Assembly: GCA_036396655.1 (NCBI GenBank)
Contig: DASWKK010000066.1
Location: forward strand, 912-64,911
DNA: 64,000 nucleotides
Direction: 5' to 3'
From: Acidimicrobiia bacterium
GTDB taxonomy: Bacteria > Actinomycetota > Acidimicrobiia > Spongiisociales > ZC4RG35
The notes below the pieces were generated by a model. The model was not told where the DNA came from and made no database searches. It worked only from the letters and a program-made list of their open reading frames with translations. The position numbers and the translations under genes are program-made. Below are positions 15,332 to 63,357 of this stretch, one piece after another; the stretch's first letter is position 1; every line of letters begins with the position of its first letter.

Positions 15332-15388
15332 ACGGCCAAGTCTATGCCGCAAAGCCGACAAGAAAGCCGTCTTGACCGATCAACAGAG

Positions 15389-38019: not shown

Positions 38020-38268
38020 CGGGTGATCGGTTACAACTGCACACGTCGGCGCTGGTCGGACGGGGATTGCTGTCAGGATCTCTCATGCAAGCCAAGCCAA
38101 GATGCCAAAGATCGAGCCCCCAAACGGCAATCCCCGTCGCGCTCTCTCCCAGCCCCGCCCACACTCTCGCCCGCCCGGGCGATACCTCCATGACCATTGT
38201 CAGATTCATCCCATGTGTCTAGTCCCTGGTCAACCCAACGAACGTTTGTTTGCGATAGACTGCCTGGC

Positions 38269-39213: not shown

Positions 39214-39225
39214 GGGAGCTGGAAG

Positions 39226-39570: not shown

Positions 39571-40322
39571 TCGAGCCGAACCTGCCTTCGATGCCGCCAG
39601 TTCTCCCATCAGCGAACGGTGACCGGCTCGTCTTCCTTCTCGCCTGTGCCGACGACAACCTGGTCCTGGCCCAGCGTCTCGGGGAGTGGATCTCCAACGC
39701 GCCGGAGCTGGAAGAGGACATCGCCCTGGGCAACATCGCACTCGACCATCTAGGTGTGGCCCGGGCCCTCTACACGCACGCTGGTGAAGTCGAGGGTCTG
39801 GGGCGGACAGAGGACGATCTGGCGATGAGGCGTTCCGAGCGTGACTTCATGAGCGCATTGCTGGTGGAGCAACCCAATGGCGACTTCGCCCAGACCATGG
39901 TGCGATCGCTGTTCTTCGATACCCACCAGGTCGAGCTGTGGTCCGATCTCTCCGACTCCGATGACGCCACGTTGGCCGGAATCGCGGCGCGGGCGCTCAA
40001 GGAGGCCCGCTATCACCTTCGGCACTCCTCCGCCTGGGTGATTCGACTCGGGGACGGGACCGAAGAATCACATCGACGGGCTCAGGAAGCGGTGGATGCC
40101 CTGTGGCGGTACACCGCCGACCTCTTCGAGGGCGGCGCCGACGGCCATCGAGACCAGTGGCAGAAGACGATCGAAGAGGTGTTGGACGAGGCTCGCCTCA
40201 CGATTCCGGAAGACCCGTATCAACGAAGTGGCGGCCGGAGGGGATTTCACTCGGAGCATTTGGGTCATCTGCTCGCCGAGATGCAATGGATGCAACGCAG
40301 CTACCCGGGGCTGGAGTGGTGA
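39567..40322 (+). CDS. paaC: 1,2-phenylacetyl-CoA epoxidase subunit C
   Basis: PaaC/PaaI family ferritin-like protein; GTG start overlapping paaB stop. Confidence 0.8.
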   Translation: MIEPNLPSMPPVLPSANGDRLVFLLACADDNLVLAQRLGEWISNAPELEEDIALGNIALDHLGVARALYTHAGEVEGLGRTEDDLAMRRSERDFMSALLVEQPNGDFAQTMVRSLFFDTHQVELWSDLSDSDDATLAGIAARALKEARYHLRHSSAWVIRLGDGTEESHRRAQEAVDALWRYTADLFEGGADGHRDQWQKTIEEVLDEARLTIPEDPYQRSGGRRGFHSEHLGHLLAEMQWMQRSYPGLEW

Positions 40323-40786
40323 CGGCAACAGCCGAGACCGACCTGATTCGCGCTCGCGACATCGCATCTACCGTGGTCGATCCCGAGATCCCGGTGCTGA
40401 GTGTCGCCGACCTGGGCATCCTTCGTGACGTCGAGGTGAGGGACGGCCGGGTGACGGTGACCATCACGCCCACCTACTCGGGTTGTCCCGCGATGCGCCA
40501 GATCGAGCATGACCTCAAGACCGCCCTGGGCGACGCCGGGTTCGCCGATGTTGAGGTCCGGATGGTCCATAGCCCGGCGTGGAGCAGCGAGTGGATCACC
40601 CCGGAGGGTCGTCGCCGGCTGGCCTCATTCGGCATCGCCCCGCCAGGTCCGTTGGGCGAGGTCCTGTGCCCGCGGTGCGCGTCCGGCTCCCCGCGGATGG
40701 TGGCCAGGTTCGGGTCGACCGCATGCAAGGCGCTGATGGTCTGCACGGCCTGCGGTGAGCCATTCGACTTCTTCAAAGAGTTCTGA
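40319..40786 (+). CDS. paaD: phenylacetate-CoA oxygenase subunit PaaD (PaaJ-like, DUF59)
   Basis: DPEIPVLSVADLGILRDV... and C-terminal CxxC...CxxC; GTG start overlapping paaC stop; N-terminal part of track ORF 40103 rejected. Confidence 0.8.
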   Translation: MTATAETDLIRARDIASTVVDPEIPVLSVADLGILRDVEVRDGRVTVTITPTYSGCPAMRQIEHDLKTALGDAGFADVEVRMVHSPAWSSEWITPEGRRRLASFGIAPPGPLGEVLCPRCASGSPRMVARFGSTACKALMVCTACGEPFDFFKEF

Positions 40787-40866
40787 GTGAGCCTCGTCTT
40801 TCACCCTCTGCGGTTGTCCCCCTGCTTTGCGGGGGGACCGCCCGTAGGGCGAGGGGGGTGTAGCCA
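40787..40866 (+). repeat. structured intergenic insert between paaD and paaE: 26-bp duplicate of the paaE 5' end plus two hairpins
   Basis: gtgagcctcgtctttcaccctct (40787-) nearly identical to the paaE start gtgagcctcgactttcaccgtct (40867-); between them gtccccc-tgctttgcg-gggggac and cgccc-gta-gggcg stem-loops. Confidence 0.6.
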
Positions 40867-41934
40867 GTGAGCCTCGACTTTCACCGTCTCCGAGTCTCGG
40901 AGGTCTCGCCTCTCACTGACGATGCCGTGGCCGTCACCTTCGATGTTCCTCCCGAGCTGGCGGAGGCGTTTCGCTACCTGCCGGGCCAACACATGACGTT
41001 ACGTGCCCTCATCGACGGAAGGGACGTGCGACGGTCCTACTCGATCTGCTCCAACGCCAACGAAGGAAAGCTACGGGTCGGGATCAAACGGCTCCCCGGC
41101 GGAGCGTTCAGCAGCTATGCCACGAGTGTGCTCGCGGCGGGTGATGTCATCGACGCGATGCCTCCTGTGGGTGAGTTCAGCATCGTTCCCGACCCGACGA
41201 CCGCCCGGCATCGGGTGGCGATCGCGGCCGGGTCGGGCATCACACCCGTCCTCTCGCTCATCTCAACCACACTCGAGAGTGAGCTCCGATCGTCGTGGAC
41301 GCTCCTCTTCGGCAATCGCACGGCCAACACCGTGATGTTCCTCGAGGAGTTGGAAGGGTTGAAGGACCGGTATCCGGACCGCTTCCAGATGTTTCACCTG
41401 TTCAGCCGTGAGGCGGCAGACCTGCCCCTGCTCGTCGGGCGGATCGACGACGAGAAGCTCCGGGCGGTGAACCGTCTTCTCGGGGGCCGACCGGTGCGAG
41501 GCTGGTACCTGTGCGGCCCCTACGACATGGTGATGACCGCCCGGGAGACACTGTCCTCGTTGGGGGTCGAACCGGACCTGATCCACGACGAATTGTTCTT
41601 CGCCGGTCCCGTAGATCCCTCATCGCTGCCTCCGGAGCCGTCACCCGGCGAGGGCTCGGTCGAGCTGAGGGTGATCCTCGACGGGAGGGCAGTCGAGACC
41701 CGGATGACCGCCGACACCTCGATCCTCGACGCCGCCCTGCGGGTCCGCTCCGAATTGCCGTTTTCGTGCAAGGGCGGGATGTGTGCCTCGTGCAAGGGTC
41801 GGATAGAGGAGGGTGAGGTCCGGATGGACAAGAATTACGCCCTCATCGACTCGGAGGTGGACGCTGGTTACGTGCTCACCTGTCAGTCACATCCGGTCTC
41901 GGATCGAGTCGTCGTTCGCTACGACCACCGCTGA
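40867..41934 (+). CDS. paaE: phenylacetate-CoA oxygenase/reductase subunit PaaE (FNR-like with 2Fe-2S ferredoxin domain)
   Basis: FAD-binding RSYSICS, NAD-binding domain, C-terminal CKGGMCASCKG ferredoxin cysteines. Confidence 0.85.
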   Translation: MSLDFHRLRVSEVSPLTDDAVAVTFDVPPELAEAFRYLPGQHMTLRALIDGRDVRRSYSICSNANEGKLRVGIKRLPGGAFSSYATSVLAAGDVIDAMPPVGEFSIVPDPTTARHRVAIAAGSGITPVLSLISTTLESELRSSWTLLFGNRTANTVMFLEELEGLKDRYPDRFQMFHLFSREAADLPLLVGRIDDEKLRAVNRLLGGRPVRGWYLCGPYDMVMTARETLSSLGVEPDLIHDELFFAGPVDPSSLPPEPSPGEGSVELRVILDGRAVETRMTADTSILDAALRVRSELPFSCKGGMCASCKGRIEEGEVRMDKNYALIDSEVDAGYVLTCQSHPVSDRVVVRYDHR

Positions 41935-44993: not shown

Positions 44994-46022
44994 TCAGCCC
45001 CCGTTGGATGAGGTCTCTTTGACCGTCCACGTGCCCTGACTGGTAATCAGGGTGGACAGGTCGCCATCACCCAGCTTCTCCTTGGCCGCCTCGATCTGGG
45101 CGTTCATCTGCGACTCATATGTCGGCCGATGGACGTTACGGAAGATGCCAAGTGGGGTCGGTCCATAGGGCCCGTGAGACAGCCTGCTCAACGCGAATGC
45201 GACCGCCGGGTCGGGTCGGGTCGGGTCATGGACCAGGATCGCTCCCGGATCGACCGTGGACGAGTCCACGATCGTGGCCGAGCCGTCGCGAAGGACGATC
45301 GCCTTGGCTCCCTCGTCGAAGACGACCGGCTTTCCGATCTCGAGGTCGATCCGGTTGTGTACCCGCTCTTCCTTGCCGGTCAGCTGGATGAATGCCTTGT
45401 CGTTGAACACGTTGCAGTTCTGGTAGATCTCGATGAAGGCCGAGCCTTCGTGCTCGTAGGCCGCCTTGAGCAGCTCCTGGGTGTGGCCGCGATCCATGTC
45501 CAGGGTGCGGGCCACGAAGGTGGCCTCGGCGCCGAGGGCCAGGGAAACCGGGTTGAACGGGTAGTCGATCGACCCGTAGGGCGAGGACTTGGTGGTTTTG
45601 CCCGGCTCCGAGGTAGGGGAGTACTGGCCCTTGGTCAGCCCATAGATCTGATTGTTGAACAGCAGGATCTTGAGGTTCACATTGCGACGAAGGGCATGGA
45701 TGAGATGGTTCCCGCCAATGGAGAGGGCATCTCCGTCGCCGGTGATCACCCAGACCGAAAGCTCCGGCCTGGTGGAGGCGATCCCCGACGCGATCGCCGG
45801 GGCACGCCCGTGGATCGAGTGCATGCCGTAGGTGTTCATGTAATACGGGAACCTCGCGGCGCAACCGATGCCCGATACGAAGACGAACTCCTCTCGGGGC
45901 CGTCCGAGACCGGCCAGAAACTGTTGGACCGAGGCCAGGATGGTGTAGTCGCCGCATCCCGGGCACCAACGCACTTCCTGATCTGTCTGAAAGTCGGCGC
46001 GGGTATAGCTCGGGGCGGTCAC
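44994..46022 (-). CDS. korB: 2-oxoglutarate/2-oxoacid:ferredoxin oxidoreductase subunit beta
   Basis: TPP-binding WCPGCGDY...GIGC...ITGDGD motifs. Confidence 0.9.
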   Translation of the reverse strand: MTAPSYTRADFQTDQEVRWCPGCGDYTILASVQQFLAGLGRPREEFVFVSGIGCAARFPYYMNTYGMHSIHGRAPAIASGIASTRPELSVWVITGDGDALSIGGNHLIHALRRNVNLKILLFNNQIYGLTKGQYSPTSEPGKTTKSSPYGSIDYPFNPVSLALGAEATFVARTLDMDRGHTQELLKAAYEHEGSAFIEIYQNCNVFNDKAFIQLTGKEERVHNRIDLEIGKPVVFDEGAKAIVLRDGSATIVDSSTVDPGAILVHDPTRPDPAVAFALSRLSHGPYGPTPLGIFRNVHRPTYESQMNAQIEAAKEKLGDGDLSTLITSQGTWTVKETSSNGG

Positions 46023-47899
46023 TTGATCATCTCCAGGATCTTCTCGGTTATCTCCGAGATCTTGAACGGCTCGCCTGCGATCTTGTTGAGACCCTTGGCG
46101 TCGACCAGGTACTCGGCCCTGATCACTTTGCGCAGCTGACCGGTGTTCAGCTCTGGGATCAGGATTTTGTCGTATCGGTTCAGGATGTCACCCAGGTTCC
46201 GTGGCATCGGGTTGAGGTACCGGAGATGAGTGGTGGCCACCTTCTCTCCGGCCAGTCTCACTCTCCGGGCTGCAGCGCGGATCGAGCCAAACGTCGAGCC
46301 CCAGCCGAGGACCAGGATGTCGGCGTCCTCGTCGCCGTTGACCTCCAGATCGGGGACGTCGTTGACGATGTTGGCCACCTTCCAGGCCCGGGTATCGGTC
46401 ATCAACTGATGATTGGCCGGGTCGTAGGACACGTTCCCGGTTATGGCCTCCTTCTCGAGACCGCCGATCCTGTGCTCCAGACCCGGGGTCCCAGGTACCG
46501 CCCAAGGGCGGGCGAAGGTGTCGATGTCCCGCATGTAGGGCAGGAATGTCGAGTTGGGCCCGTTGGGGTGTCGAGCGAATTCGGTTTCGATCGGTGCAAT
46601 CGCATCGACATCAGGCAACATCCATGGCTCGGACCCGTTGGCGACCTGGTTGTCGCTGAGGAGAAGGACCGGAGTCATGTACTTGATCGCGATCCGGGCC
46701 GCTTCGATCGTCAGCTCGAAGGCATCAGATGGCGAGGCGATGGCCAGGACCGGGATCGGGGACTCACCGTGACGCCCGTAGAGCGAGAAGAGGAGGTCCG
46801 ACTGCTCGGGCTTGGTCGGCAGACCGGTCGACGGCCCACCACGCTGCACGTTGATCACGATCAGCGGCAGTTCCATCATGAAGGCAAGCGAGATGCCCTC
46901 ACTCTTCAGTGCGATTCCCGGCCCTGATGAGCCAGTGACCGCGAGGCTCCCGGCAAAGGCAGCCCCGATGGCAGTGCCAACCCCGGCGATCTCGTCCTCG
47001 GCCTGGAAGGTTCGCACCCCGAAGTTCTTGTGACGGGCCAGCTCATGAAGGATGTCCGATGCCGGTGTGATGGGGTAGGTCCCGTAGAAAAGCGGCAGCC
47101 CGGACAACTTGGAGGCGGCGATCAGGCCCCAGGCGAGGGCCGTGTTGCCATTGACGTTGGTGTAGGTGCCGGGGCGAAGGGCCGCCGGCTTGATCTCGAA
47201 GGTGATCTTGGCCGCCTCGGTGGCCACGCCGAAGGTGTATCCGGCCTGGAAAGCCGCCACGTTGGCCGCGGCGACTTCGGGAGTTCGGGAGAACTTCTTC
47301 TGCGCCCATTCGATTGTGGGCTCGGTCGGTCGGTGGAACAGCCATGCGAGCAACCCGAGAGCGAAGAAGTTCTTGGAGCGGAGCACGCTTCGACCCGAGA
47401 CCCCGGTGTCTTTCACGGCTTCCTTGGTCAGCTCGTCCATTGGCACCTTGATCACCCGGTATCCGTCCAGGGTTCCGTCCTCCAACGGGTCCTTGTCATA
47501 ACCAGCTTTCGCCAGGTTCCGCTCATCGAAGGTGTCGGTGTTGACCACCAGGGTGCCGCCCTGACGGAGGTCCCTGAAGTTCTTCTTCAACGCGGCCGGG
47601 TTCATCGCCACGAGGCAATCTGGCTGGTCGCCCGCGGTGAGGATGTCGAAGTCGGCGATCTGAACCTGGAAGCTGGAAACGCCGGGAAGGGTCCCCGCCG
47701 GCGCCCGGATCTCCGCCGGGAACGAAGGCAGGGTCGCCAGGTCGTTGCCGAAGAGTGCGCTTGCGTCGGTGAATCTCGATCCGGCTACTTGCATTCCATC
47801 GCCGGAGTCGCCGGCGAAACGGATCACAACCCGGTCCAGGGTCTCGCTGGGGGTGGTGGAGGGTTCAGCTGTGGCGATCTGGTCGGCCACTTTGGTCAC
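46019..47899 (-). CDS. korA: 2-oxoglutarate/2-oxoacid:ferredoxin oxidoreductase subunit alpha
   Basis: 626-aa fused alpha/gamma domain protein, overlapping korB. Confidence 0.9.
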   Translation of the reverse strand: MTKVADQIATAEPSTTPSETLDRVVIRFAGDSGDGMQVAGSRFTDASALFGNDLATLPSFPAEIRAPAGTLPGVSSFQVQIADFDILTAGDQPDCLVAMNPAALKKNFRDLRQGGTLVVNTDTFDERNLAKAGYDKDPLEDGTLDGYRVIKVPMDELTKEAVKDTGVSGRSVLRSKNFFALGLLAWLFHRPTEPTIEWAQKKFSRTPEVAAANVAAFQAGYTFGVATEAAKITFEIKPAALRPGTYTNVNGNTALAWGLIAASKLSGLPLFYGTYPITPASDILHELARHKNFGVRTFQAEDEIAGVGTAIGAAFAGSLAVTGSSGPGIALKSEGISLAFMMELPLIVINVQRGGPSTGLPTKPEQSDLLFSLYGRHGESPIPVLAIASPSDAFELTIEAARIAIKYMTPVLLLSDNQVANGSEPWMLPDVDAIAPIETEFARHPNGPNSTFLPYMRDIDTFARPWAVPGTPGLEHRIGGLEKEAITGNVSYDPANHQLMTDTRAWKVANIVNDVPDLEVNGDEDADILVLGWGSTFGSIRAAARRVRLAGEKVATTHLRYLNPMPRNLGDILNRYDKILIPELNTGQLRKVIRAEYLVDAKGLNKIAGEPFKISEITEKILEMIK

Positions 47900-51990: not shown

Positions 51991-52398
51991 ATGCGACAGG
52001 TGATTGTTGCCCATGCCCACTGCGATCTCTTCTGCGGGGTCTACGACCCGGCCCAGGCCAAGATCGAGGCGATGTCGGTGCTCAAGTCGGCCGAGAAGTA
52101 CCAGGGCTCGGACGATGAGGTATTCAGGAGCCGGGCGATCACCATCAAGGAGGAACGCGCCGAACTGGTCAAGCACCACCTGATGGTGCTCTGGGTCGAC
52201 TTCTTCACGGCCGACCATCGCAAGGAGTTCCCCAACCTCGACGATCTCTTCTGGCGTGCCATCCTCCAAGCCGGGAATGCCAAGAAGTCAGTCGATCCCG
52301 AGGACGGGAAGAAGCTGGTTGCCCTGATCGACGAAATCGCCGAGATCTTCTGGCAGACGGAGAAGGCCCAGGGGGCGGGGGTCTACCCGCCTAACTAG
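51991..52398 (+). CDS. sodN: nickel superoxide dismutase precursor
   Basis: Leader MRQVIVAHA followed by Ni-hook HCDLFCGVYDPAQA and conserved NiSOD helices; ATG 51991 with AGGAG upstream; an in-frame ATG at 51958 also possible. Confidence 0.8.
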   Translation: MRQVIVAHAHCDLFCGVYDPAQAKIEAMSVLKSAEKYQGSDDEVFRSRAITIKEERAELVKHHLMVLWVDFFTADHRKEFPNLDDLFWRAILQAGNAKKSVDPEDGKKLVALIDEIAEIFWQTEKAQGAGVYPPN

Positions 52399-52674: not shown

Positions 52675-54315
52675 TCAGTCGTCCAGAACGTCAGGCTCCA
52701 GCTTGGCAAAGAGCGGCGTCACCGTGCCCAGATGAGCTCCTCCCGGGACCGGAACACGTTCCCAGCTGGTCACATCGCGCTCGATGCCGAGCATCTCACC
52801 GAGCGGGCCTGTGGTCCAGGGCAGGTAAGGGGAGAGGGCGACCCTGATCCCGGAGATGGCCTGAATGGCAGTCCACAGGATGGTGCCGGCTCGCACGGGG
52901 TCCTGTTTCAGAACGTGCCATGGCTCCTCGGAGTTGAGGTAGGCGTTGACTTCGGAGGCGGCGTCCATCGCAGTTCGTAATCCGGCACGGAGCTCGACCG
53001 CTTCGATATGGCCCGCGGTGGACTGCAACGCCGTGTCCACCGACGCGATCAATGCCTCGTCGGTGGCGGTGAGCGGCCCCGGGGAAGGCACCTGTCCCCC
53101 GTAGTGGCGCTCCGTGATCGAGAGGACACGATTGACCAGATTGCCCCAGGTGGCCACCAGCTCCTCGTTGACACGTCGGATGAGCTCGTCGTCACTGAGA
53201 TCGGTGTCGTTCTGCTCGGGGAGAACCGAGGCGATGGCATAACGAATGGCGTCGGGCTCGAGACGCTCGGCATACCAGCCGATGGGCAATCCAACACCCT
53301 GAGATCTCGACGCCTTCATCCCCTTGAAGGTGATGTACTGGTTGGCGGGGACGTCGGTCGGCAGGTTGAGCCCACCGTATCCCATCAGCATCGCCGGCCA
53401 GATCACTGCGTGAAACGGAATGTTGTCTTTGCCCACGAAGTAGTAGGACTCGGCTTCGGGATCCTCCCACCATCGCTTCCAGGCGTCGCGATCCCCGGTT
53501 GAGGCGGCCCACTCCTTGGCCGCGCTCAGATAGCCAATGACGGCGTCGAACCACACGTAGATGCGCTTTCCCGGCCCGAGGTCGTCCACCGGGAGTTCCA
53601 CTCCCCACTCGATGTCTCTGGTGATCGCCCGCTCCGGCATCCCCTCGTCGATCATTCCCAGTGCCCAGTTCTTCACGTGACGACGCCAGGTGGTCTTAGA
53701 TTCGAGCCAATTGCGGAGATCGTCCGCGAATGCGGGCAGCTTGAAGAAGTAGTGCTCGGTCTCCCTGAGCACCGGTGTGGCGCCGGTGAGACGGGACCGG
53801 GGGTCGATCAGGTCGATGGCGTCGAGAGTCCGCCCGCAGTTCTCGCACTGATCCCCCCTGGCCTGGGTGTACCCGCAGTGGGGGCAGGTCCCCTCCACGT
53901 AGCGGTCGGGGAGAAAACGCTCCGCCTCCGGGTCGAAGTACTGGGGGGTGGTCGACTTCACCAGGTACCCCTTCTCCAGGAGCCGGAGGAAGACATCCTG
54001 TGTCACCGCGGCGTGGTTCCCGGTCATGGTGGTGGTGAAAAGGTCGAACGAGATGCCGAGCGAGTTCCAATAACCGAGGATCTCGGGGTGGTACTTCTCG
54101 ACCACGTTGCGGGGACTGATCCCCTCTTCGTCGGCCTTGACCGTTATCGGAGTCCCATGGGCGTCGGATCCGGAGACCATGAGTACGTCATTGCCGGCGA
54201 TGCGGTGGTAGCGGGCGAAGATGTCGGCGGGCAGATAGGCCCCGCCCAGGTGCCCGAGATGGAGCGAGCCCGACGCATAGGGCCAGGCCACCGCGACCAG
54301 TATTCGACGACTCAT
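52675..54315 (-). CDS. metG: methionine--tRNA ligase
   Basis: HIGH-type motif YASGSLHLGHL and KMSKS-like FKGMKASRSQG; zinc knuckle CPHCGY...CENCG. Confidence 0.9.
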   Translation of the reverse strand: MSRRILVAVAWPYASGSLHLGHLGGAYLPADIFARYHRIAGNDVLMVSGSDAHGTPITVKADEEGISPRNVVEKYHPEILGYWNSLGISFDLFTTTMTGNHAAVTQDVFLRLLEKGYLVKSTTPQYFDPEAERFLPDRYVEGTCPHCGYTQARGDQCENCGRTLDAIDLIDPRSRLTGATPVLRETEHYFFKLPAFADDLRNWLESKTTWRRHVKNWALGMIDEGMPERAITRDIEWGVELPVDDLGPGKRIYVWFDAVIGYLSAAKEWAASTGDRDAWKRWWEDPEAESYYFVGKDNIPFHAVIWPAMLMGYGGLNLPTDVPANQYITFKGMKASRSQGVGLPIGWYAERLEPDAIRYAIASVLPEQNDTDLSDDELIRRVNEELVATWGNLVNRVLSITERHYGGQVPSPGPLTATDEALIASVDTALQSTAGHIEAVELRAGLRTAMDAASEVNAYLNSEEPWHVLKQDPVRAGTILWTAIQAISGIRVALSPYLPWTTGPLGEMLGIERDVTSWERVPVPGGAHLGTVTPLFAKLEPDVLDD

Positions 54316-55328: not shown

Positions 55329-56435
55329 ATGACCAATCGTCTGCTCTCCCTCACCGCTGCGCTGATGCTGATTGTGGCTGCCTGCGGTGGGACAACCGAA
55401 GGCACCACCACCACCGGATCCGACACCACCACCACCACCCAGACCGAGACCACGGTCGCGGCCGAGACTCCCCAAGGTGTCCTGCTCTCCTACTCCCTGG
55501 CCGCCGGCGACGAGTACAGCTACGAAGTGGACCTCGATCAGCACATCGAGGTGAGCGCGTCGGGTGACGCCTCGTTGATGGGAGACGAGGAGATGCCGGG
55601 CAATGCCGTGGTGGACCTGACCGGGTCCGCGACCTTCACCCACGTCGTGTCCGACGGGCCCGAGCCGGGCACATATGAGATTCACATAACCGGAGAATTC
55701 GCCGACGTGACGGTCACAGGCACCGTGGACGGCGAGCCCGTGGACTCCGACGAAGCACCCGACTTCGCCGCCCTGGATCCGATCGACCTGACCATCGTCG
55801 TCGACGAGCAAGGCAAACTCATCCAGGAGGAAGGCGACATCGATGATCCCCTTGGTGGGCTCTTTGGAGATCTGGGTGCCTTGGGTAGCACCAGTCCCGC
55901 TCCCGGTCTCGACCCGGGCCAGTTCTTCGGTCCGTTGCTGTCAGACGACGAGGTCACCGTTGGAGATACCTGGTCGGAAGACATCGAGACGCCCGGCTTG
56001 TCCGAAGACAGCTCGATCGTGACCAGCATCACCAGCACGGTCACGGATCTCGAGAACCTCGACGGGACTGAGGTGTTCGTCATCGAGAGCCAGACTTCGA
56101 CCTCGCGCATCGAGCTCGATTTGGGTGAGTTCTTCGCCGGCATGTTCGGGGCGTTCCTGCCCGAGGGGACCACTGAGGCAGAGTCGGCCGAGTTCGAGGA
56201 GATGCTCGCCCAACTCAAATTCGTGATGACCATCGACGACACCACATCCGACAGCAAGACCTGGTTCGACGCCGGGGCCGGAGTTGCCCGGCAATCGGAA
56301 GTCACCGCCGGCACCATCATCACCATGGAGTTGAACATGCCTGACGAAGACACCGGCGAGATGGTCGGCTTCGATATGGACATGGCCCTCGATCAGGTCA
56401 TCACTTATCGGTTGATCTCCGGGCCCACCGCCTGA
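55329..56435 (+). CDS. acidic hypothetical lipoprotein with Thr-rich linker
   Basis: Signal peptide with lipobox IVAACG, poly-Thr spacer, Asp/Glu-rich body. Confidence 0.55.
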   Translation: MTNRLLSLTAALMLIVAACGGTTEGTTTTGSDTTTTTQTETTVAAETPQGVLLSYSLAAGDEYSYEVDLDQHIEVSASGDASLMGDEEMPGNAVVDLTGSATFTHVVSDGPEPGTYEIHITGEFADVTVTGTVDGEPVDSDEAPDFAALDPIDLTIVVDEQGKLIQEEGDIDDPLGGLFGDLGALGSTSPAPGLDPGQFFGPLLSDDEVTVGDTWSEDIETPGLSEDSSIVTSITSTVTDLENLDGTEVFVIESQTSTSRIELDLGEFFAGMFGAFLPEGTTEAESAEFEEMLAQLKFVMTIDDTTSDSKTWFDAGAGVARQSEVTAGTIITMELNMPDEDTGEMVGFDMDMALDQVITYRLISGPTA

Positions 56436-56436
56436 G

Positions 56437-57174
56437 TCACTTCTTGCGGCGGAGACCGGAGAGGGCGCTCCGCCACAAGTAGGCGGTGAAGCTGGGGATC
56501 GCCTCTTGGTCCCGGTGGAACTGGTCGCCGACCGAAGCGGTCGTTTCGTCTCTCTGCGGTGCCTCGATCGAGTGTTCCCCCGCGGCGCGCATCTCAGCCA
56601 ATCGCTCTCTGAGGAAGACCGCCTCGGTCTCGGCCCGCGCCGCCCTCTCACGGGCCTCAGCCAGCTGCTGACCTGCCTCGTGGAGGTTGCCCAGTTGGAG
56701 CAGCATCTTGTCCCAGGCAGCGATGGGAACGATCATCGTGCCGGGAGGGGGAGTCATCTCGGAGGCTGGCTTCGATGTGACCACGCCGCGCGCCGAGGCC
56801 GTCTCGCGTGGCGGCCCTGCTGGCACGCTCTCCCGTCCCACCTGCGTGGCCCGCGCCCGCACTCCATCCAGGGTGACCAGCCGGCGAGACCCGGTCGGTG
56901 TCTCGTCCAGGATGCTTGGGATGCGGTCTTTGCTGGCCCACTTTCGCAGTGTGGCAATGGGGATCCCGGTTGCCGCACTCGCTTGGCGAAGAGTCAGCCA
57001 ATCCTGGCCCGAAACATGGAGGTCCCCGGCTTGGTCTGGACCGCTGGCGTTCGAGGATGGCTGGCGGGCGGGTGGTGGCGTTGTCGGGGTGCGAAGCGCC
57101 TCGGTCTCCCATAGAAACGCAGCATCCTGATCAGCCATGTCGTCATCATAAGAACTCTCTGCCGGCGAGATCAT
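56437..57174 (-). CDS. helix-turn-helix (MerR/excisionase-like HTH_17) DNA-binding protein with C-terminal coiled coil
   Basis: WLTLRQASAATGIPIATLRKWASKDRIP HTH; divergent from the BMC locus. Confidence 0.5.
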   Translation of the reverse strand: MISPAESSYDDDMADQDAAFLWETEALRTPTTPPPARQPSSNASGPDQAGDLHVSGQDWLTLRQASAATGIPIATLRKWASKDRIPSILDETPTGSRRLVTLDGVRARATQVGRESVPAGPPRETASARGVVTSKPASEMTPPPGTMIVPIAAWDKMLLQLGNLHEAGQQLAEARERAARAETEAVFLRERLAEMRAAGEHSIEAPQRDETTASVGDQFHRDQEAIPSFTAYLWRSALSGLRRKK

Positions 57175-57229
57175 GGGCCGTCACCCATGTTCCTAGGATG
57201 GGCCGGGTGAGGAGGCCGCAACCAGCCAC

Positions 57230-57859
57230 ATGACATCGCCCGTCGGCCCGACATCCCCGACCGAACAAGAAGTCCGAACACTGGTCGAGAGTGTGCTCGA
57301 CGGAGTCCTGGGCTCCGACTCCGACCGGCCCGGGCCGGATCCCGCCCCGCCGACCCCGGCCGGGGCCGACGAGGGAGTGCCGAAGGCAACTATCGCGGTG
57401 GGATCCGACCACGGCGGCTACCCGCTCAAGGAGAGGCTGGCATTCAAGCTCCGAGAGACCGGCTACGAGATCGTCGATTGCGGGACGGACTCACACGACG
57501 CAGTCGACTATCCCGACTTTGCCCACGCAGTAGCCCGAGAGGTCAGCTCCGGGTCCTGTCGTTACGGCATCGTGGTGGACGGAGCCGGAATCGGTTCGGC
57601 CATGGTGGCCAATAAGGTGCCGGGAGTGCGCGCCGCCTTGTGTTACGACCTGTCGTCGGCCCGTAACAGCCGAGAGCACAACCATGCCAACGTGTTGACT
57701 CTGGGGGCCGGGTTGATCGGGGAGGCTCTCGCATGGCAGATCGTCGAGGAGTGGCTCTCTGTCGATTGGGGTGGTGGTCGACACGCTCGCCGGGTTGCCA
57801 AGATCGACGAGGTGGAACGGCAATACTCCGGATCCGGCGTGAGTCAGGATCACCGATGA
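57230..57859 (+). CDS. rpiB: ribose-5-phosphate isomerase B family sugar-phosphate isomerase with ~55-aa N-terminal extension (amphipathic helix plus Pro-rich linker; putative encapsulation peptide)
   Basis: Core [17 protein letters not shown]...[17 protein letters not shown]...; extension [17 protein letters not shown] followed by [21 protein letters not shown]. Confidence 0.8.
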
Positions 57860-58689
57860 ATCGCGATGCGTTGGTCGAGGCGGTGACTCGGGAGGTGATC
57901 GCTGCTCTCTCGACTCGCTACGACGTGTGTGACACCGGCGAGAAGGTGCGCGAGGTCGTGGCCAACGGGGTCGACCGCGTCGCCTTTCACGGCGAGGCGG
58001 CCGAGGTGCCCCTGGACATGGCTCGATACATCGATCACACCCTGCTCAAGCCCGAGGCAACGGCCGCCGAGATCGACCAGCTTTGTCGCGAGGCCGCGCA
58101 GTACCGCTTCGCCTCGGTTTGCATCAATCCGACATGGGTCAAGCGCGCGGCGGAGAATCTTCGGGGCACAGCGGTCCCGGTATGCACCGTGATCGGCTTT
58201 CCCCTCGGTGCCGGCACATCGGAGATCAAAGCGATGGAAGCGCGGAGGGCACTCCGTGACGGCGCACGGGAAGTCGACATGGTGCTCAACATCGGGGCGT
58301 TGAAGTCGGGTGACCATGACCTGGTGCTGAAGGACATCGAGAAGGTGGTCGATGCCGCCCACGAGGTAGGTGCATTGTGCAAAGTCATCCTCGAGACCGC
58401 CCTGCTCACCGACGAGGAGAAAGTGGTCGCGTCGGCTCTCGCCAAGAAGGCCAAAGCGGACTTCGTCAAGACGTCGACCGGGTTCGGCCCGGGAGGCGCA
58501 ACCGTCTATGACGTGGCCCTGATGCGGGAGACGGTCGGGCCCGAGATGGGAGTGAAAGCCTCGGGTGGGGTTCGCACCACCGATGACGCGGAGGACATGA
58601 TCGCTGCCGGTGCTACCAGAATCGGTGCATCGGCCGGGATCGAGATCGTAGGCGGCAAGGATGGAGGACAAGGTGACGAGAGGTATTGA
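57856..58689 (+). CDS. deoC: deoxyribose-phosphate aldolase with N-terminal amphipathic extension (putative encapsulation peptide)
   Basis: [20 protein letters not shown], Schiff-base lysine block [10 protein letters not shown]; N-terminus [19 protein letters not shown] precedes the aldolase core; ATGA overlap with rpiB. Confidence 0.85.
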
Positions 58690-59302
58690 GCTGAGGTCGT
58701 TTGCGTTCCTGGACAGCCTCCAGCCGCAATACGCAGCGTTTCTCGGGACGGTGGCCCAGGGATTCCTCCCGCTGGCCAGCGACTCGTCCCTCTGGGTGGA
58801 AGTGGCTCCAGGTATCGAGATCAACCGTCTGACAGACGTGGCTCTGAAGGCGACGTCGGTCAAGCCGGGTCTTCAGATCATCGAGCGCTTCTACGGCGTG
58901 CTCGAGGTTCACTCACCGGATCAGGCCGAGACCAGAGCCGCTGGGGCGGCCATCCTCGACGGCATCGAGCTGACCGAGCACGACCGGATCAAGCCGCGGA
59001 TCTTGTCGTCCCAGATCATTCGCAGACTCGACGACCATCACGCTCAGCTCATCAACCGGACGCGACACGGTCAAATGATCATCCCGGGTCAGACCCTGTA
59101 TGTCCTCGAATGCGAGCCGGCCGCATATGCGTCACTTGCTGCCAACGAGGCGGAGAAGGCAGCTGAGATCAATGTCCTCGAGGTGCGAAGCTTCGGCTCG
59201 ATGGGCCGGGTGTATCTGGGCGGGGAGGAGCAGGACATCGATGTCGGGTGGCAGGCAGCGGTGGGCGCCCTGGAAGGGCTCACCGGCCGTGATGCCGGCT
59301 GA
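58661..59302 (+). CDS. BMC shell protein, tandem permuted BMC domains (BMC-T, EutL/PduB-like)
   Basis: Two ~100-aa halves each with a permuted-BMC pattern ([31 protein letters not shown]; second half [26 protein letters not shown]); start ATG 58661 or GTG 58676 (GGAGGA upstream). Confidence 0.6.
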
Positions 59303-59351
59303 GAGAGGATCTGCTTGAGTCAACGACTAAGACAACGAAAGGAGGAGCTTC

Positions 59352-59654
59352 ATGGCTGAGGCTCTTGGCATGATCGAAACTCGAAGCTTCTCGGCGATGG
59401 TCGAGGCGGCAGATGCGATGGTGAAAGCCGCCAAGGTGGAGCTAGTGGGCATGGAGAAGACCGGTGGTGGATATGTGACCGCCGTCGTGCGTGGCGATGT
59501 GGCCGCGGTCAAGGCTGCCGTCGACGCCGGTGTCCGGGGAGCGGAGAAGGTGGGTGAGGTCGTCTCGACCCATGTCATCGCACGCCCACACGTCAACATC
59601 GACCTGGTTCTGCCGCTCGGTCGCCAGGATCAGGCGCAAGACGATCTCGGTTGA
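59352..59654 (+). CDS. BMC shell hexamer protein (BMC-H, PduA/EutM/CcmK-like)
   Basis: [55 protein letters not shown], canonical PF00936 sequence; strong AGGAGG Shine-Dalgarno. Confidence 0.9.
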
Positions 59655-59690
59655 CCCACCCATCCGTCGTGGGAGACAGGAGATAGGACC

Positions 59691-60002
59691 GTGCATCTAG
59701 GCAGGGTCGCCGGGACGCTTGTCGCCAGTCGCAAGGAACCCCTCATGGAGGGGATGGTGTTCCTCGTCGTGCGCCAACTCGACTCAGAGAACGCCGAGAC
59801 GGGGAGCTATGTGGTGGCGGTCGACACGGTCGGTGCCGGTGTCGGCGAAGTGGTGCTCTACGCCTCGGGCAGCTCGGCGCGTCAAACGGAATCGACGCGC
59901 GACCGACCGGTGGATGCGGTGATCATGGCCATCGTCGACTCCTGGGATGTCGGGGGAGAGGTCCGGTACCACAAGGGTGACGAAGAGGCGTCGAGCAGGT
60001 AG
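59691..60002 (+). CDS. BMC vertex pentamer protein (BMC-P, EutN/CcmL family) paralog 1
   Basis: [31 protein letters not shown]...[17 protein letters not shown] pattern of EutN/CcmL; GTG start with AGGAGA. Confidence 0.8.
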
Positions 60003-60004
60003 CG

Positions 60005-61462
60005 ATGCTGAGCGACACAGATATCCAGGCCATAATCGAGCGGGTCAGGGGCCGGGTCGCCGCAGCCGAGACGAACCGACGGGCGGCTCCGGCTTTGCGT
60101 GCCTCCGACGACCTCGCCGTGTCCGATGTCCAACTCGGCGACGGCATCCACCCTTCCATCGACGATGCGGTGGCGGCGGCTCGCACTGCCTTTCTCGAAT
60201 ACCGCGAGATGGGGCTCGAATCGCGCAAGTCGATCGTCGAGGCCATGCGAGCCGCGATGTTGCGGGAGGGGGAGCGACTCGGGTACATGGCGGCTGAGGA
60301 GACCGGGATCGGGAGGGGTGAGGACAAGGCGATCAAGAACCGCCTGGTAACCACCAAGACCCCGGGGCCCGAAGACCTCGAGCCACAGGTGGTAACCGGT
60401 GACGCCGGCATGATGGTCACCGAATACGCCCCTTACGGAGTGATCGGTTCGATCACTCCGACCACAAATCCCACATCCACGATCATCAACAATTCGATCG
60501 CCATCGTGTCGGCGGGCAACGCAGTGGTCTTCAACGTCCATCCCAACGCCCGGTTGGTATCGGTCGAGAATGTCCAGCTTCTCAACCGGGCCATCGTCGG
60601 GGCCGGCGGCCCGCCGGATCTGGTGACTGCGATACCCCAGCCGACACTGGAGTCCGCGCGCCAGTTGATGCAACATCCCGAGGTTCGCGTGCTCCTGGTC
60701 ACCGGCGGCCCCGGTGTAGTCAAAGAGGCGCTCAAGACCAGCAAAAAAGCGATAACCGCCGGGCCCGGCAACCCGCCTTCGGTGGTCGACCAAACCGCCG
60801 ACATCGACAACGCGGGCCGCGCCATCGTCAGGGGAGCGTCCTTCGACAACAACGTCATCTGCACCGACGAGAAAACCACGATCGTGGTCGACACCGTCGC
60901 CGACCGTCTAGTGCAGGCGATGGTCGCCGCCGGCGCCTACCGGCTCAAGGAGCACGAGCTGAAGCGTCTGGAGCGGGTGATATTCAAGGAGATGGGGCCC
61001 CCCGGCAAACCGGGGATGATCAACACCGACTGGATAGGCAAGGACGCGGCGAGGATCCTCTCCGAGATCGGGGTGACAGTGGGGGACGAGGTGAGACTGG
61101 TCGTGGCCGAGGTCCGACGCGAGCACAACCTGGTCTGGACCGAACAGATGATGCCGGTGATGCCGGTGGTCCGGGTGAGCAACGTCGAGGATGCCATCGA
61201 TCTCGCGGTTCGCTCCGAGCACGGGTTCCGACACACCGCTTCGATCCACAGCACCAATGTGGAGACGATCACACGCATGGCCCGCGCGATGAACTGCAGC
61301 ATTTTCGTGGCCAATGGGTCCAACTTCAACGGCCTCGGAGAAGGAGGCGAAGGATTCACCTCGTTCTCGATCGCCAGCCCTACCGGGGAGGGATTGACCC
61401 GGCCGCGCACTTTCTCCAGGGTGCGCCGGGTGACGGTGGTCGGAGCCCTGCGAATTGTCTGA
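60005..61462 (+). CDS. CoA-acylating aldehyde dehydrogenase (EutE/PduP-like) with N-terminal amphipathic extension (putative encapsulation peptide)
   Basis: SITPTTNPTSTIINN, catalytic Cys region ASFDNNVICTDEK, C-terminal SPTGEGLTRPRTFSRVRR as in EutE; N-terminus DTDIQAIIERVRGRVAAA. Confidence 0.85.
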   Translation: MLSDTDIQAIIERVRGRVAAAETNRRAAPALRASDDLAVSDVQLGDGIHPSIDDAVAAARTAFLEYREMGLESRKSIVEAMRAAMLREGERLGYMAAEETGIGRGEDKAIKNRLVTTKTPGPEDLEPQVVTGDAGMMVTEYAPYGVIGSITPTTNPTSTIINNSIAIVSAGNAVVFNVHPNARLVSVENVQLLNRAIVGAGGPPDLVTAIPQPTLESARQLMQHPEVRVLLVTGGPGVVKEALKTSKKAITAGPGNPPSVVDQTADIDNAGRAIVRGASFDNNVICTDEKTTIVVDTVADRLVQAMVAAGAYRLKEHELKRLERVIFKEMGPPGKPGMINTDWIGKDAARILSEIGVTVGDEVRLVVAEVRREHNLVWTEQMMPVMPVVRVSNVEDAIDLAVRSEHGFRHTASIHSTNVETITRMARAMNCSIFVANGSNFNGLGEGGEGFTSFSIASPTGEGLTRPRTFSRVRRVTVVGALRIV

Positions 61463-62057
61463 CGGAGCGCAAGCGGTCGCCCTATTCGAGTTTGGCTCGA
61501 TCAGCGCGGGAATCGTCGCCGGTGATGCCATGGTCAAGGCCTCTCCGCTGGGAGCCATCTATGCCGGCACCGTGCACCCAGGCAAGTACCTCGTGTTGGT
61601 CACCGGAGACACGGCCAGTGTCGCCTTGGCTGTCGATGTCGGGAACGAGGTGGGGCGGGAGACAGTAAGCGACGTTGTGTTCCTCGCCGATATCCACCCG
61701 TCCGTTCCCCAGGCGATTCGGGGTAATAGCGCCCGGGCGGCAGTGGGTGACGAGGCCCTCGGCATCCTGGAGACCTCTTCGGTGGCCGCGGCTGTGGACG
61801 CCGCCGACGCAGGGGTCAAAGCTGCCGACGCCCGGCTCGCCGCTATCAGACTGGGCGACGGTTTGGGGGGTAAGGGCTATGTCCTGTTCACCGGGATAGT
61901 GGCGGAGGTCGAGGCGTCGTTGGAGGCGGCGGTGGCCCGCGCCGAAGGTCACGGGACACTGGTGCGCTCCGATCTCATCGCGCAGCTTCACGAGGAGATG
62001 GCTGACAACCTTCGCGCTGACCTCAGTTTCATGAACCGGGTCGCCGGGAGTCGATGA
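61455..62057 (+). CDS. BMC shell protein with tandem canonical BMC domains (BMC-T, PduT-like, no Cys)
   Basis: Domain 1 ALFEFGSISAGIVAGDAMVKASPL..., domain 2 ALGILETSSVAAAVDAADAGVKAADARL...; TTG start overlapping the AldDH stop, start uncertain. Confidence 0.7.
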   Translation: MSDGAQAVALFEFGSISAGIVAGDAMVKASPLGAIYAGTVHPGKYLVLVTGDTASVALAVDVGNEVGRETVSDVVFLADIHPSVPQAIRGNSARAAVGDEALGILETSSVAAAVDAADAGVKAADARLAAIRLGDGLGGKGYVLFTGIVAEVEASLEAAVARAEGHGTLVRSDLIAQLHEEMADNLRADLSFMNRVAGSR

Positions 62058-62058
62058 G

Positions 62059-62337
62059 ATGCAACTGGGCCGTGTCTTAGGAAGCGTCGTCGCCACCAAG
62101 AAGTCCCCCGGTCTGGAGGGAGTCCGGCTTCTCATCGTCCAGCCTCTCGACAAGACCCAGCAACCAAAGGGCGAGAGCGTGGTTGCTGCCGACGCGGTGT
62201 CCATGGCCGGCCCCGGCGAACTGGTGTACTTCGTTGCCTCCCGGGAGGCGGCCGAGGCTCTGCCCGAGCGGTTCGTGCCGGTCGACCACGCTGTGGTGGG
62301 CATTGTCGACCAGATTCACCTGGAATCCAGCCGATGA
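62059..62337 (+). CDS. BMC vertex pentamer protein (BMC-P) paralog 2
   Basis: MQLGRVLGSVVATKKSPGLEGVRLLIVQPLD... EutN/CcmL family. Confidence 0.8.
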   Translation: MQLGRVLGSVVATKKSPGLEGVRLLIVQPLDKTQQPKGESVVAADAVSMAGPGELVYFVASREAAEALPERFVPVDHAVVGIVDQIHLESSR

Positions 62338-62609
62338 AGGTGGGCCGGGTTGCGGGGACTGTCGTGTCCACGATCAAGGTTCCGGTTCTCGACCACCACC
62401 GGCTCCTTCTCTGCGATATCGAGGATCTGAAGGGAAGGTCGTTGGGCTACACCATCGCCGTAGACGTGGTCGATGCCGGCGTGGGCGACAAGGTGCTGAT
62501 CCTCGACGAGGGCAGCTCGGCCCGTCAGATCCTCGGTCTCGAATGGGGTGCGATCCGGGCAGTGGTGGTGGGCATCGTGGATCAGTTGGTGGTGGACGGC
62601 GCGGTGTAG
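62334..62609 (+). CDS. BMC vertex pentamer protein (BMC-P) paralog 3
   Basis: MKVGRVAGTVVSTIKVPVLDHHRLLLCDIEDL...DAGVGDKVLILDEGSSAR; ATGA overlap with paralog 2. Confidence 0.8.
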   Translation: MKVGRVAGTVVSTIKVPVLDHHRLLLCDIEDLKGRSLGYTIAVDVVDAGVGDKVLILDEGSSARQILGLEWGAIRAVVVGIVDQLVVDGAV

Positions 62610-62779
62610 CCGAAGGTACTTCGCCCAGCGCGGAGCTTCGGTTTGAAATCCGAAATAGCGGGTAAGGGCGCTGACCCGATCAACACACACCTTGAATTGA
62701 CATCGATCAACATTGCCGGGGCGGATCAGGGAGAAGCTCCTCCCTCCATCAGTGAGCTACGAGCCCTCACGCCGCCCGA

Positions 62780-62812
62780 TCCGCCCCGGCGATCAACATC
62801 GGATCGGGCCAG
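62780..62812. promoter_or_regulatory. 9-bp perfect inverted repeat with 15-bp spacer immediately upstream of the ECF sigma gene
   Basis: cccgatccg-ccccggcgatcaaca-tcggatcggg. Confidence 0.3.
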
Positions 62813-62814
62813 GC

Positions 62815-63357
62815 ATGCAGGACCATGACTTCCGCGCCCATCTCCGTGCCGCCCGTGCCGGGGATGAGCCTGCCTGGTGGGCCCTCTATCACTGGCTCGC
62901 TCCTCAGGTTCTCGGGTTTCTCCGCGTCAGCCGGGTTCCCGACCCCGAAGACGTCCTCGGTGATGTCTTCCTCGAGGTGGCTCGCCGGATCGATCGATTT
63001 CGGGGCGACGCGCGGGGGTTCAGGGCTTGGGTGTTCACCATTGCACGGGCGCGTCGCGTCGACGAGATTCGGCGCCGTGCCCGGCGTCGGGAAGACCCAC
63101 TCGACACCGGAATTCACGAGCTGTTGCCCTCTCCCCACGATGTCGAGACCGAGGCGCTCGCCATGGTCGGGCTGGACGAGTTGATCGGCCTTCTCGACCA
63201 ACTCACCGACGATCAGAGCGAAGTGCTGGTATTGCGGGCTATCGGTGGTTGGACAGCTCGTGAGGTGGGAGACATCACCGGTCGTACCACCGGATCCGTG
63301 GAGCAACTGCAACACCGGGCGACCAGGGCGCTGAGACAGCTTCTCGATGAGGCGTAA
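62815..63357 (+). CDS. ECF (sigma-70 family, group 4) RNA polymerase sigma factor
   Basis: Region 2 VFLEVARRIDRFRG...FRAWVFTIARARRVDEIRRR and region 4 HTH LTDDQSEVLVLRAIGGWTAREVGDITGRTTGSVEQLQHRA. Confidence 0.8.
   Translation: MQDHDFRAHLRAARAGDEPAWWALYHWLAPQVLGFLRVSRVPDPEDVLGDVFLEVARRIDRFRGDARGFRAWVFTIARARRVDEIRRRARRREDPLDTGIHELLPSPHDVETEALAMVGLDELIGLLDQLTDDQSEVLVLRAIGGWTAREVGDITGRTTGSVEQLQHRATRALRQLLDEA

Follow-up and report, generated by a model that had tools for sequence, protein, structure and literature searches.

Organization of the microcompartment locus

A 64,000-nt stretch of the genome of an Acidimicrobiia bacterium (GenBank assembly GCA_036396655.1, contig DASWKK010000066.1, positions 912 to 64,911 of the forward strand), hereafter the window, contains a bacterial microcompartment (BMC) locus of nine co-directional, intact open reading frames (ORFs) at 57230-62609 on the plus strand, as read from the ORF listing of the window. 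Gene families were assigned by profile search with Pfam and NCBIfam, which gave the order RpiB-like protein, DeoC (deoxyribose-5-phosphate aldolase, DERA), BMC-Tdp, BMC-H, BMC-P, CoA-acylating aldehyde dehydrogenase (AldDH), BMC-Ts, BMC-P and BMC-P. The enzymes of the operon are limited to AldDH, DERA and the RpiB-like protein (the ribose-5-phosphate isomerase homolog, or RPI, of sugar-phosphate-utilizing (SPU) systems), and no further genes were found in the operon. Judged by this gene content and order, the locus is a canonical, already catalogued BMC operon of the SPU3 subtype.

The genes are tightly packed and read as translationally coupled, with overlaps of 4 nt at RpiB/DeoC and at P2/P3 (the last two BMC-P genes), 8 nt at AldDH/Ts and 17 or 29 nt at DeoC/Tdp, and the gaps between the remaining genes of the operon are 49, 36, 2 and 1 nt, all taken from the coordinates. 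An earlier, sequence-only reading of this stretch had described nine co-directional, tightly packed genes, and all nine ORFs were recovered in place on the plus strand; its count of one BMC-H, two BMC-T and three BMC-P proteins was correct by profile and structure matches. The same reading spoke of several 4-nt overlaps, of which the tight overlapping stands but only two are of that length. Ten nucleotides 3' of the last shell gene, a pattern scan gave a weak terminator-like hairpin (62619-62635, plus strand), matching the consensus and having a poor T-tail, which is a possible end of the operon.

Shell proteins

The shell inventory includes a BMC-H (59352-59654, 100 aa; PF00936, 103.6 bits), which is the only single-domain PF00936 protein of the locus and is predicted to form its single canonical hexamer. 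Its edge motifs, K25-A-A-K28 and A77-R-P-H80, as well as the pore loop TGGGY, are conserved (49 sequences).

The BMC-Tdp (58661-59302) is predicted to be a permuted tandem-domain, double-stacking gated trimer of the CcmP type, with 337.8 bits to the NCBIfam CcmP model (cut-off 340). In the PDB it matches CcmP (4ht5, E 8.5e-84, full length), a BMC-T of the Haliangium ochraceum (HO) BMC (5v76, E 1e-71) and CsoS1D (3f56, E 4e-53), and public gene calls label it with PF27545 (CsoS1D_N). By these match scores, which were used to assign the clade, the protein is placed in the CcmP-like major clade. Its PF00936 score of 22.0 bits is the sole call of the locus under the Pfam gathering score (24.5), which is expected behaviour because the BMC domain is circularly permuted. 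The sequence-only reading had named shell calls below Pfam thresholds as grounds for abandoning it; five of the six shell proteins pass, and the sixth is this BMC-Tdp, yet it is unambiguously of the CcmP type. The gene can begin at ATG 58661 (213 aa) or at GTG 58673 (209 aa), and the GTG, where most relatives begin, is favoured as the start. Residues E75 and R76 are invariant in 47 of 47 sequences, and they align with the pore-gating residues of CcmP, which we take to be E69 and R70.

The BMC-Ts (61455-62057, 200 aa, TTG start; PF00936, 100.9 bits in two domains) is predicted to be a PduT-like tandem-domain pseudohexamer, with a score of 94 bits to the eut_PduT model, under the cut-off of that model. 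It has no cysteine at all, as is also the case in most close relatives, and thus cannot bind the pore Fe-S cluster of the PduT type.

The three PF03319 proteins, predicted to be the pentameric vertex proteins, are BMC-P1 (59691-60002, 103 aa, GTG start; 101.8 bits, aligned from residue 1), BMC-P2 (62059-62337, 92 aa; 93.8 bits) and BMC-P3 (62334-62609, 91 aa; 71.1 bits). They are mutually 35-42% identical, P1 having 40-42% identity to P2 and P3, and P3 having 35% identity to P2. P2 and P3, which share a 4-nt overlap, correspond to the adjacent pair of the triplet, with P1 standing apart. In the JGI gene call BMC-P1 is cut to 85 aa and so misses its conserved N-terminus, MxLGRV, which starts at GTG 59691.

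Cargo enzymes

Sequence comparison indicates that the three cargo proteins each carry an N-terminal extension that their non-BMC homologs lack. In the RpiB-fold protein (57230-57859, 209 aa; PF02502, 178 bits) this includes a conserved putative encapsulation peptide (EP) motif, EQEVRxLVExVLDGV, at residues ~12-27, followed by a Pro/Ala-rich linker that is variable in length and sequence among relatives, the RpiB domain beginning at residue 54. At the position of the catalytic Cys66 (E. coli numbering) the protein has Asp117, with Asp in 50 of 53 relatives, and at the position of Thr68 it has Ala119, with Ala in 51 of the 53, so that ...VVDGAGIG... stands against ...ICGTGLG... in the alignment with PDB sequences. 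The other active-site residues of RpiB (D60, H61, H150, N151, R184 and R188) are invariant. The change of Cys66 to Asp has been reported for all SPU RPIs, of which the SPU6 RPI is the only one assayed, showing negligible ribose-5-phosphate isomerase activity and forming a ~1:1 complex with DERA (Dwyer 2024, PMC11585597). Because of the Cys66 substitution and the inactive SPU6 RPI, it is proposed here that the protein is probably not a working ribose-5-phosphate isomerase and is most likely a DERA-binding, EP-bearing partner for cargo packaging. The RpiB named in the sequence-only reading thus stands as a fold and probably not as a working isomerase. Three relatives (L034, L040 and L045) encode a second RpiB homolog, with 43-46% identity to the BMC one, on the opposite strand and a few kb downstream; this second copy may serve as the housekeeping isomerase.

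The signature enzyme of the locus, DERA (57856-58689, 277 aa; TIGR00126, 289 bits, cut-off 117), matches the DERA structure PDB 8qps (E 8.8e-83), and it aligns to solved DERAs only from residue 53 onward. The N-terminal extension of ~52 aa is highly conserved, in a stretch of 17 residues and a further one of 24. The enzyme retains the catalytic residues D141, K205 and K234, which correspond to D102, K167 and K201 of the E. coli enzyme and whose columns are conserved in 70-71 of 71 aligned sequences. An N-terminal extension made of a helix plus strands was found on every SPU DERA (Dwyer 2024, PMC11585597), and the extension seen here matches it.

The third cargo protein is a CoA-acylating AldDH of the EutE/PduP family (60005-61462, 485 aa; PRK15398, 616 bits, cut-off 403), with a match to the aldehyde dehydrogenase structure PDB 5jfl (E 2.9e-125) and with the catalytic Cys286 present in 45 of 45 sequences. 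Near its N-terminus (residues ~5-22) the motif DTDIQAIIERVRGRVAAA is conserved and the linker behind it is variable, a pattern that has the layout of an encapsulation peptide; N-terminal EPs have also been described on the AldDH of SPU types other than SPU6 (Dwyer 2024, PMC11585597). A hydrophobic-moment scan for EPs gave no discrimination from the rest of the proteins. The sequence-only reading would also have been given up if the three enzymes belonged to clades never associated with BMCs; instead, they have SPU-specific N-terminal extensions and, in the RpiB-fold protein, Asp in place of the catalytic Cys.

Assignment to the SPU3 type

The sequence-only reading had recognized the SPU class from DeoC, an RpiB-type protein and a CoA-acylating AldDH together with shell genes, and this is upheld and narrowed here to SPU3, a placement made feature by feature against the published description. 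In the BMC catalogue, SPU3 loci have AldDH, pfam01791 and pfam02502 as their only enzymes, with pfam02502 first (Sutter 2021, Nat Commun 12:3809, Supplementary Data 2), and both AldDH and pfam01791 bear N-terminal EPs. Their shell combines a single standard BMC-H with a triplet of BMC-P, a BMC-Tdp of the CcmP-like kind and a BMC-Ts that lacks a pore cysteine and a co-occurring PduS, and Actinobacteria are within the host range (Sutter 2021, Nat Commun 12:3809). SPU3 is one of the most prevalent catalogued BMC types. The locus is assigned to it because every tested feature fits this description: the same enzyme set, RPI before DERA, a single BMC-H, three BMC-P of which two are adjacent, a Tdp like CcmP, a BMC-Ts lacking both pore cysteine and PduS, and no PTAC. 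N-terminal EPs on AldDH and DERA are predicted from sequence pattern and conservation. None of the defining features differ. The differences are a divergent MerR/BldC-like helix-turn-helix (HTH) gene that is absent from the published SPU3 description, RPI and DERA as separate genes, in contrast to the fused form of 12-20 SPU3 loci in the catalogue, and the host class, as Acidimicrobiia (mostly soil metagenome-assembled genomes, MAGs) is not named in the text of the catalogue. In the supplements of Sutter 2021, Acidimicrobiia, Microthrix and Ilumatobacter were not found, and only 'unclassified-Actinobacteria RBG_16_68_12' appears as SPU3. A literature search for Acidimicrobiia together with microcompartment gave only incidental matches in reference lists.

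The only SPU system with biochemical data is the SPU6 BMC of Chloroflexi bacterium GWB2_54_36 (PMC11585597). Similarly to the present locus, it has a DERA with an N-terminal extension and a D/K/K active site, an RPI with an EP and the Cys66 to Asp change, the order RPI-DERA, one BMC-H, a Tdp and three BMC-P. It differs in the C-terminal EP of its AldDH, which is of the EUT3 branch, in a Tdp of a different major clade, in the lack of a BMC-Ts, in a regulator of the GntR/UTRA type, and in being confined to Chloroflexi. The description of the SPU class as functionally poorly characterized in the sequence-only reading is therefore partly out of date, since the DERA and RPI of SPU6 were characterized in vitro in 2024 (PMC11585597). 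The HO BMC, which serves as the structural model for shells, resembles the locus in its BMC-T2/T3, to which the Tdp is closely related (5v76, E 1e-71; 5v74, E 1.7e-69). It also has a triplet of BMC-P, and its AldDH bears an N-terminal EP, as is predicted here; in contrast, DERA and RPI are both absent from the HO main locus. The CcmP of the beta-carboxysome (4ht5/5lsr) is the best structural homolog of the Tdp (E 8.5e-84), with the Glu-Arg pore pair conserved, although it belongs to an anabolic, CO2-fixing organelle whereas the one predicted here would be a catabolic metabolosome that handles an aldehyde.

Conservation among relatives

A DERA scan of species-representative genomes found 71 loci. 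About 40 species-level genomes of Acidimicrobiia have RPI-DERA-Tdp-H-P-AldDH-Ts-P-P in identical order, with 45-100% protein identity, and shorter contigs of relatives show a prefix of the nine-gene order. The identical order was also found in MAGs labelled Zixibacteria, Krumholzibacteria and Chloroflexia, and the cassette as a whole is clearly common to several phyla. In seven loci (L048, L049, L050, L052, L053, L058 and L076), from MAGs labelled Zixibacteria, Krumholzibacteria and Ignavibacteria, RPI and DERA are fused into a protein of 443-480 aa without the N-terminal peptide of RPI. Zixibacteria and Krumholzibacteria are absent from the SPU3 host list in the text of the 2021 catalogue (Sutter 2021). 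The flanks of nine distant relatives are heterogeneous, having only lineage-specific regulators nearby and no accessory genes in common.

Some of the loci carry labels of distant groups, namely L009, L011, L013 and L015 (labelled Acidobacteriota), L032 and L044 (Gammaproteobacteria) and L036 (Saprospiraceae), and match the Acidimicrobiia locus with 70-93% identity. The flanking metG is shared by L009, L013 and L015, and the neighbouring lipoprotein gene by L009, L011 and L013, at 62-86% identity. The taxonomic labels of these seven are probably wrong, or the contigs mis-binned. In an Acidimicrobiales MAG (L074, 10001-10833), the DERA match has an E of 3e-99, weaker than its 79% identity suggests, and as a single tblastn segment it covers less than 50% of the protein; the eight other genes are intact, and an assembly error or a frameshift in this signature enzyme may explain the anomaly. 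On a 3-Mb contig of a relative (L081), an IS-type transposase (rve; 6512-7462, minus strand) is inserted between the HTH-side flank and EamA/metG, which adjoin the locus in the window.

Proposed function and alternative explanations

The steps of the proposed pathway are drawn from the published SPU model (Dwyer 2024) and from knowledge of the enzyme families. Deoxyribose-5-phosphate, from the breakdown of DNA or deoxynucleosides, would enter the shell and be split by DERA into acetaldehyde and glyceraldehyde-3-phosphate, the latter leaving for glycolysis. The acetaldehyde trapped inside would be converted by the encapsulated AldDH (Cys286), with NAD+ and CoA, to acetyl-CoA and NADH. The RpiB-fold protein, with D117 and A119, would serve as the DERA-binding packaging partner and not as an isomerase. 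Because the locus is without PTAC, alcohol dehydrogenase and PduS, the cofactors would have to cross the shell, acetyl-CoA/CoA and NADH/NAD+ most plausibly passing through the gated pore of the BMC-Tdp, which is the weakest step; such passage has been suggested for the subtypes lacking PTAC (Dwyer 2024, PMC11585597). In Acidimicrobiia, the divergently encoded MerR/BldC-like HTH protein would probably control expression. The chemistry outlined in the sequence-only reading, with acetaldehyde produced by DERA and consumed by a CoA-acylating AldDH, agrees with the published SPU model.

It is considered probable that the locus is a complete and functional metabolosome operon of the SPU3 subtype in the chromosome of a soil Acidimicrobiia member. 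The cassette is read as a functional module under selection because its ORFs are intact and its catalytic and pore residues are conserved over such divergence. Several observations weigh against this. The organelle is predicted here from its genes, and so is its substrate, as in every SPU3 system; the locus itself has no PTAC, alcohol dehydrogenase or PduS to turn over the cofactors, and neither PTAC (pfam06130) nor PduS nor alcohol dehydrogenase was found among the called genes from ~7,000 to ~10 kb past the end of the window. No deo genes (deoB, deoA/D, deoK or a nucleoside transporter) were found from ~7,000 through the window to 10 kb beyond it, nor beside the distant relatives examined, so that a source of deoxyribose-5-phosphate is unsupported by the gene context. 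In the AlphaFold2 (AF2) model of DERA, residues 3-20 form a helix; the predicted local distance difference test score (pLDDT) of the extension is below 50, and with this low confidence the EP calls depend on sequence pattern and conservation. Finally, the HTH protein is a candidate regulator of the operon in Acidimicrobiia by virtue of its position only.

The same organelle could handle another or a second substrate, the Asp-type RpiB-fold protein being in that case a genuine isomerase for another sugar phosphate. Besides or in place of deoxyribose-5-phosphate, the BMC would then process this sugar phosphate or a pentose phosphate. The strict conservation of both substitutions (at Cys66 and Thr68), with the six other active-site residues invariant, would fit a retained ligand site better than decay; activity on further substrates was left open for the SPU RPI (Dwyer 2024, PMC11585597), and a CcmP-like Tdp suggests traffic of larger sugar phosphates. 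This explanation is nevertheless thought unlikely, given that the SPU6 RPI has negligible activity on ribose-5-phosphate and binds DERA 1:1 (PMC11585597), that no enzyme of the locus is able to link ribulose or ribose phosphate to an aldehyde, and that DERA matches the deoC equivalog with 289 bits and has all of its catalytic residues intact.

That the operon belongs to another BMC type (SPU2, SPU5 or one like HO or MIC7) is quite improbable. SPU2 shares the three enzymes and the CcmP-like type of Tdp, and HO, MIC7 and SPU5 have a related AldDH and BMC-P triplets. However, SPU2 usually has a fourth BMC-P, 80% of its BMC-Ts proteins carry a pore cysteine, and it is distributed in Bacteroidetes/Spirochaetes (Sutter 2021), against exactly three BMC-P and a Cys-free Ts here. 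SPU5 is without RPI and has a CsoS1D-like Tdp, SPU1, SPU4 and SPU7 carry PTAC, and the AldDH of SPU6, a type confined to Chloroflexi, has a C-terminal EP (Sutter 2021); the main loci of HO and MIC7 have neither DERA nor RPI. The relatives of the same architecture include RPI-DERA fusions, which have been reported for SPU3 only (Dwyer 2024, PMC11585597), and the Tdp tree of the catalogue already has an actinobacterial SPU3 member, Actinobacteria bacterium RBG_16_68_12, with a CcmP-like Tdp of 210 aa (Sutter 2021). Still less credible, and thought very improbable, is a decaying or silent remnant, or a shell without a metabolic role. The missing cofactor-recycling enzyme and the missing deo genes nearby would be consistent with it, and against it stand the nine intact ORFs, the conserved catalytic and pore residues and a gene order kept across ~40 species-level genomes at identities down to 45-60%, as under purifying selection; the conserved motifs of the promoter region point the same way.

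The SPU3 assignment leaves the current picture of BMC biology unchanged, and its main value is for annotation and ecology, as a compact and complete SPU3 organelle appears to be conserved in the chromosomes of many uncultured soil Acidimicrobiia. Modestly new are the breadth of this conservation, which the literature examined does not discuss, and the linked MerR/BldC-like HTH gene. The conservation agrees with the proposal that SPU BMCs recycle deoxyribose derived from DNA in detritus-rich habitats. With three cargo genes, six shell genes and no cofactor-recycling enzyme, the cassette is also a small and well-defined candidate for heterologous reconstruction, and it poses the question of how CoA and NAD+ are turned over in a minimal metabolosome. 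If whole cofactors are exchanged through the Tdp, it would be the simplest natural test case, in aerobic soil actinobacteria, for the cofactor permeability of a metabolosome shell.

Candidate divergent regulator gene and putative promoter region

On the other side of the promoter region, a gene on the minus strand (56437-57138) encodes a putative MerR/BldC-like winged-HTH protein of 233 aa with a long coiled-coil helix, called from weak Pfam matches, an AF2 model and linkage. The longest ORF extends to 57174 (245 aa), homolog alignments begin at its residue 13, and this supports the conserved ATG at 57138 as the start; the public calls disagree, with 99 aa in JGI and 245 aa in ENA. The Pfam MerR score is 18.7 bits (cut-off 28.2), and the MerR and HTH_17 matches are weak (E about 0.002-0.006). 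The conserved blocks are an N-terminal AFLWETE, the HTH, a nearly invariant 50-residue helix and a C-terminal YLWR. In the AF2 model, the winged HTH covers residues 47-100 with pLDDT >90 and a helix spans residues 139-190 (52 residues); unlike in classical MerR proteins, ~46 residues precede the HTH domain. Foldseek ranks the DNA-binding domains of BldC, CarH, Xis and SoxR highest, with marginal E of 0.04-0.2, and a PDB sequence search with the protein gave no matches.

The HTH gene divergently adjoins the BMC locus in 26 fetched loci. Two homologs (P0159 and P0234; 48-53% identity), obtained by a search with the HTH protein by itself, lie in three places (two distinct contexts) again beside RPI-DERA-Tdp-H-P-AldDH, the other flank being different at these loci. 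The tightly linked gene offers a concrete handle on the regulation of SPU systems in Acidimicrobiia.

The divergent promoter region (57139-57229, 91 bp) was defined from an alignment of the intergenic DNA of 27 loci. It has a conserved CTAGGATGG, with TAGGAT at 57194-57199 as a -10-like TAnnnT element for the operon, and, 3' of it, a conserved Shine-Dalgarno-like GTGAGGAGG at 57207-57215. On the minus strand, a conserved -10-like TATGAT (57150 to 57145) ends 6 nt before the ATG of the HTH gene, which suggests a leaderless transcript. A scan with the sigma-70 consensus gave no promoter in 57139-57229, and the putative promoter elements are assigned here from conservation and position.

Other regulators were found at more distant loci. 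A SorC/DeoR-type regulator with a PF04198 sugar-binding domain is encoded directly upstream of an SPU3-like locus (L046, 8175-9260, plus strand), which fits the sensing of a sugar phosphate; DeoR of Bacillus subtilis is a member of the SorC/DeoR family. At one of the fusion loci (L058, 8976-9422, plus strand), a small winged-helix (HTH_34) protein is encoded directly upstream, its stop overlapping the start of the operon. It appears that different lineages have rewired the cassette, each to regulators of its own. It may be put forward, as a tentative possibility in its two parts taken together, that the SPU3 cassette of Acidimicrobiia is under undescribed, lineage-specific MerR/BldC-like regulators that sense a deoxyribose or aldehyde signal and also forms a minimal organelle exchanging whole cofactors (CoA/acetyl-CoA and NAD+/NADH) through the gated BMC-Tdp.

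Genomic setting

The GC content is flat across the window (0.62-0.65), and the neighbourhood from ~7 to ~74 kb is ordinary core chromosome in Pfam-labelled public gene calls. Its genes include glmU, prs, a Ku/ligase pair, rho, prfA, SHMT and the ATP synthase operon, as well as paaABCDE, a 2-oxoacid:ferredoxin oxidoreductase, sodN (51991-52398, plus strand) and metG (52675-54315, minus strand), the last two being near the BMC operon. No tRNA gene was found within 40 kb of the locus, the Rfam search of the whole window giving two tRNAs only and no riboswitch ahead of the operon, and the genes called near it include no integrase family. Close relatives retain the synteny with metG and EamA. The sequence-only reading had placed the locus in conserved chromosome and not on an obvious island, which is borne out by the flat GC, the core neighbours including metG and sodN, and the lack of a border tRNA or integrase; an origin of the present copy as an island or by horizontal gene transfer was rejected on these grounds together with the metG/EamA synteny.

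Among species-level genomes, the closest is that of a soil Acidimicrobiia MAG (DATKEA010000017, SMAG_U14487), with 92-100% protein identity over the locus and the adjacent genes. Dozens of metagenome contigs carry AldDH and DERA proteins identical to those of the window, so the organism is taken to be real and abundant.

Just 3' of the operon, an ORF for an extracytoplasmic function (ECF) sigma factor (62713-63357, plus strand; TIGR02937, 77 bits, cut-off 42.9) was considered as a part of the system and rejected, as it adjoins the locus in the closest relatives only. The JGI and ENA calls on identical contigs have instead an opposite-strand ORF of 182 aa (62767-63315, minus strand) with no Pfam match, which looks like a wrong-strand call in a high-GC genome. 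Adjacent to the HTH gene, on the side away from the operon, a predicted lipoprotein of 368 aa (55329-56435, plus strand; N-terminus MTNRLLSLTAALMLIVAACGG) has no Pfam match in the public calls and is kept at the locus only in closer relatives, with 57-94% identity.

Farther away, the window contains a LigD-like ATP-dependent DNA ligase and a Ku gene (11972-12913, plus strand, and 14534-15361, minus strand), ~2 kb apart, as a bacterial non-homologous end-joining pair whose coordinates were derived from Pfam-labelled public calls on an identical contig. Additionally, a phenylacetyl-CoA oxygenase cluster (paaABCDE), accompanied by a TetR regulator, was found near the two-subunit 2-oxoacid:ferredoxin oxidoreductase (38197-41934, plus strand, and 44994-47899, minus strand), and the same organism has a Ni-containing superoxide dismutase and a full ATP synthase operon.

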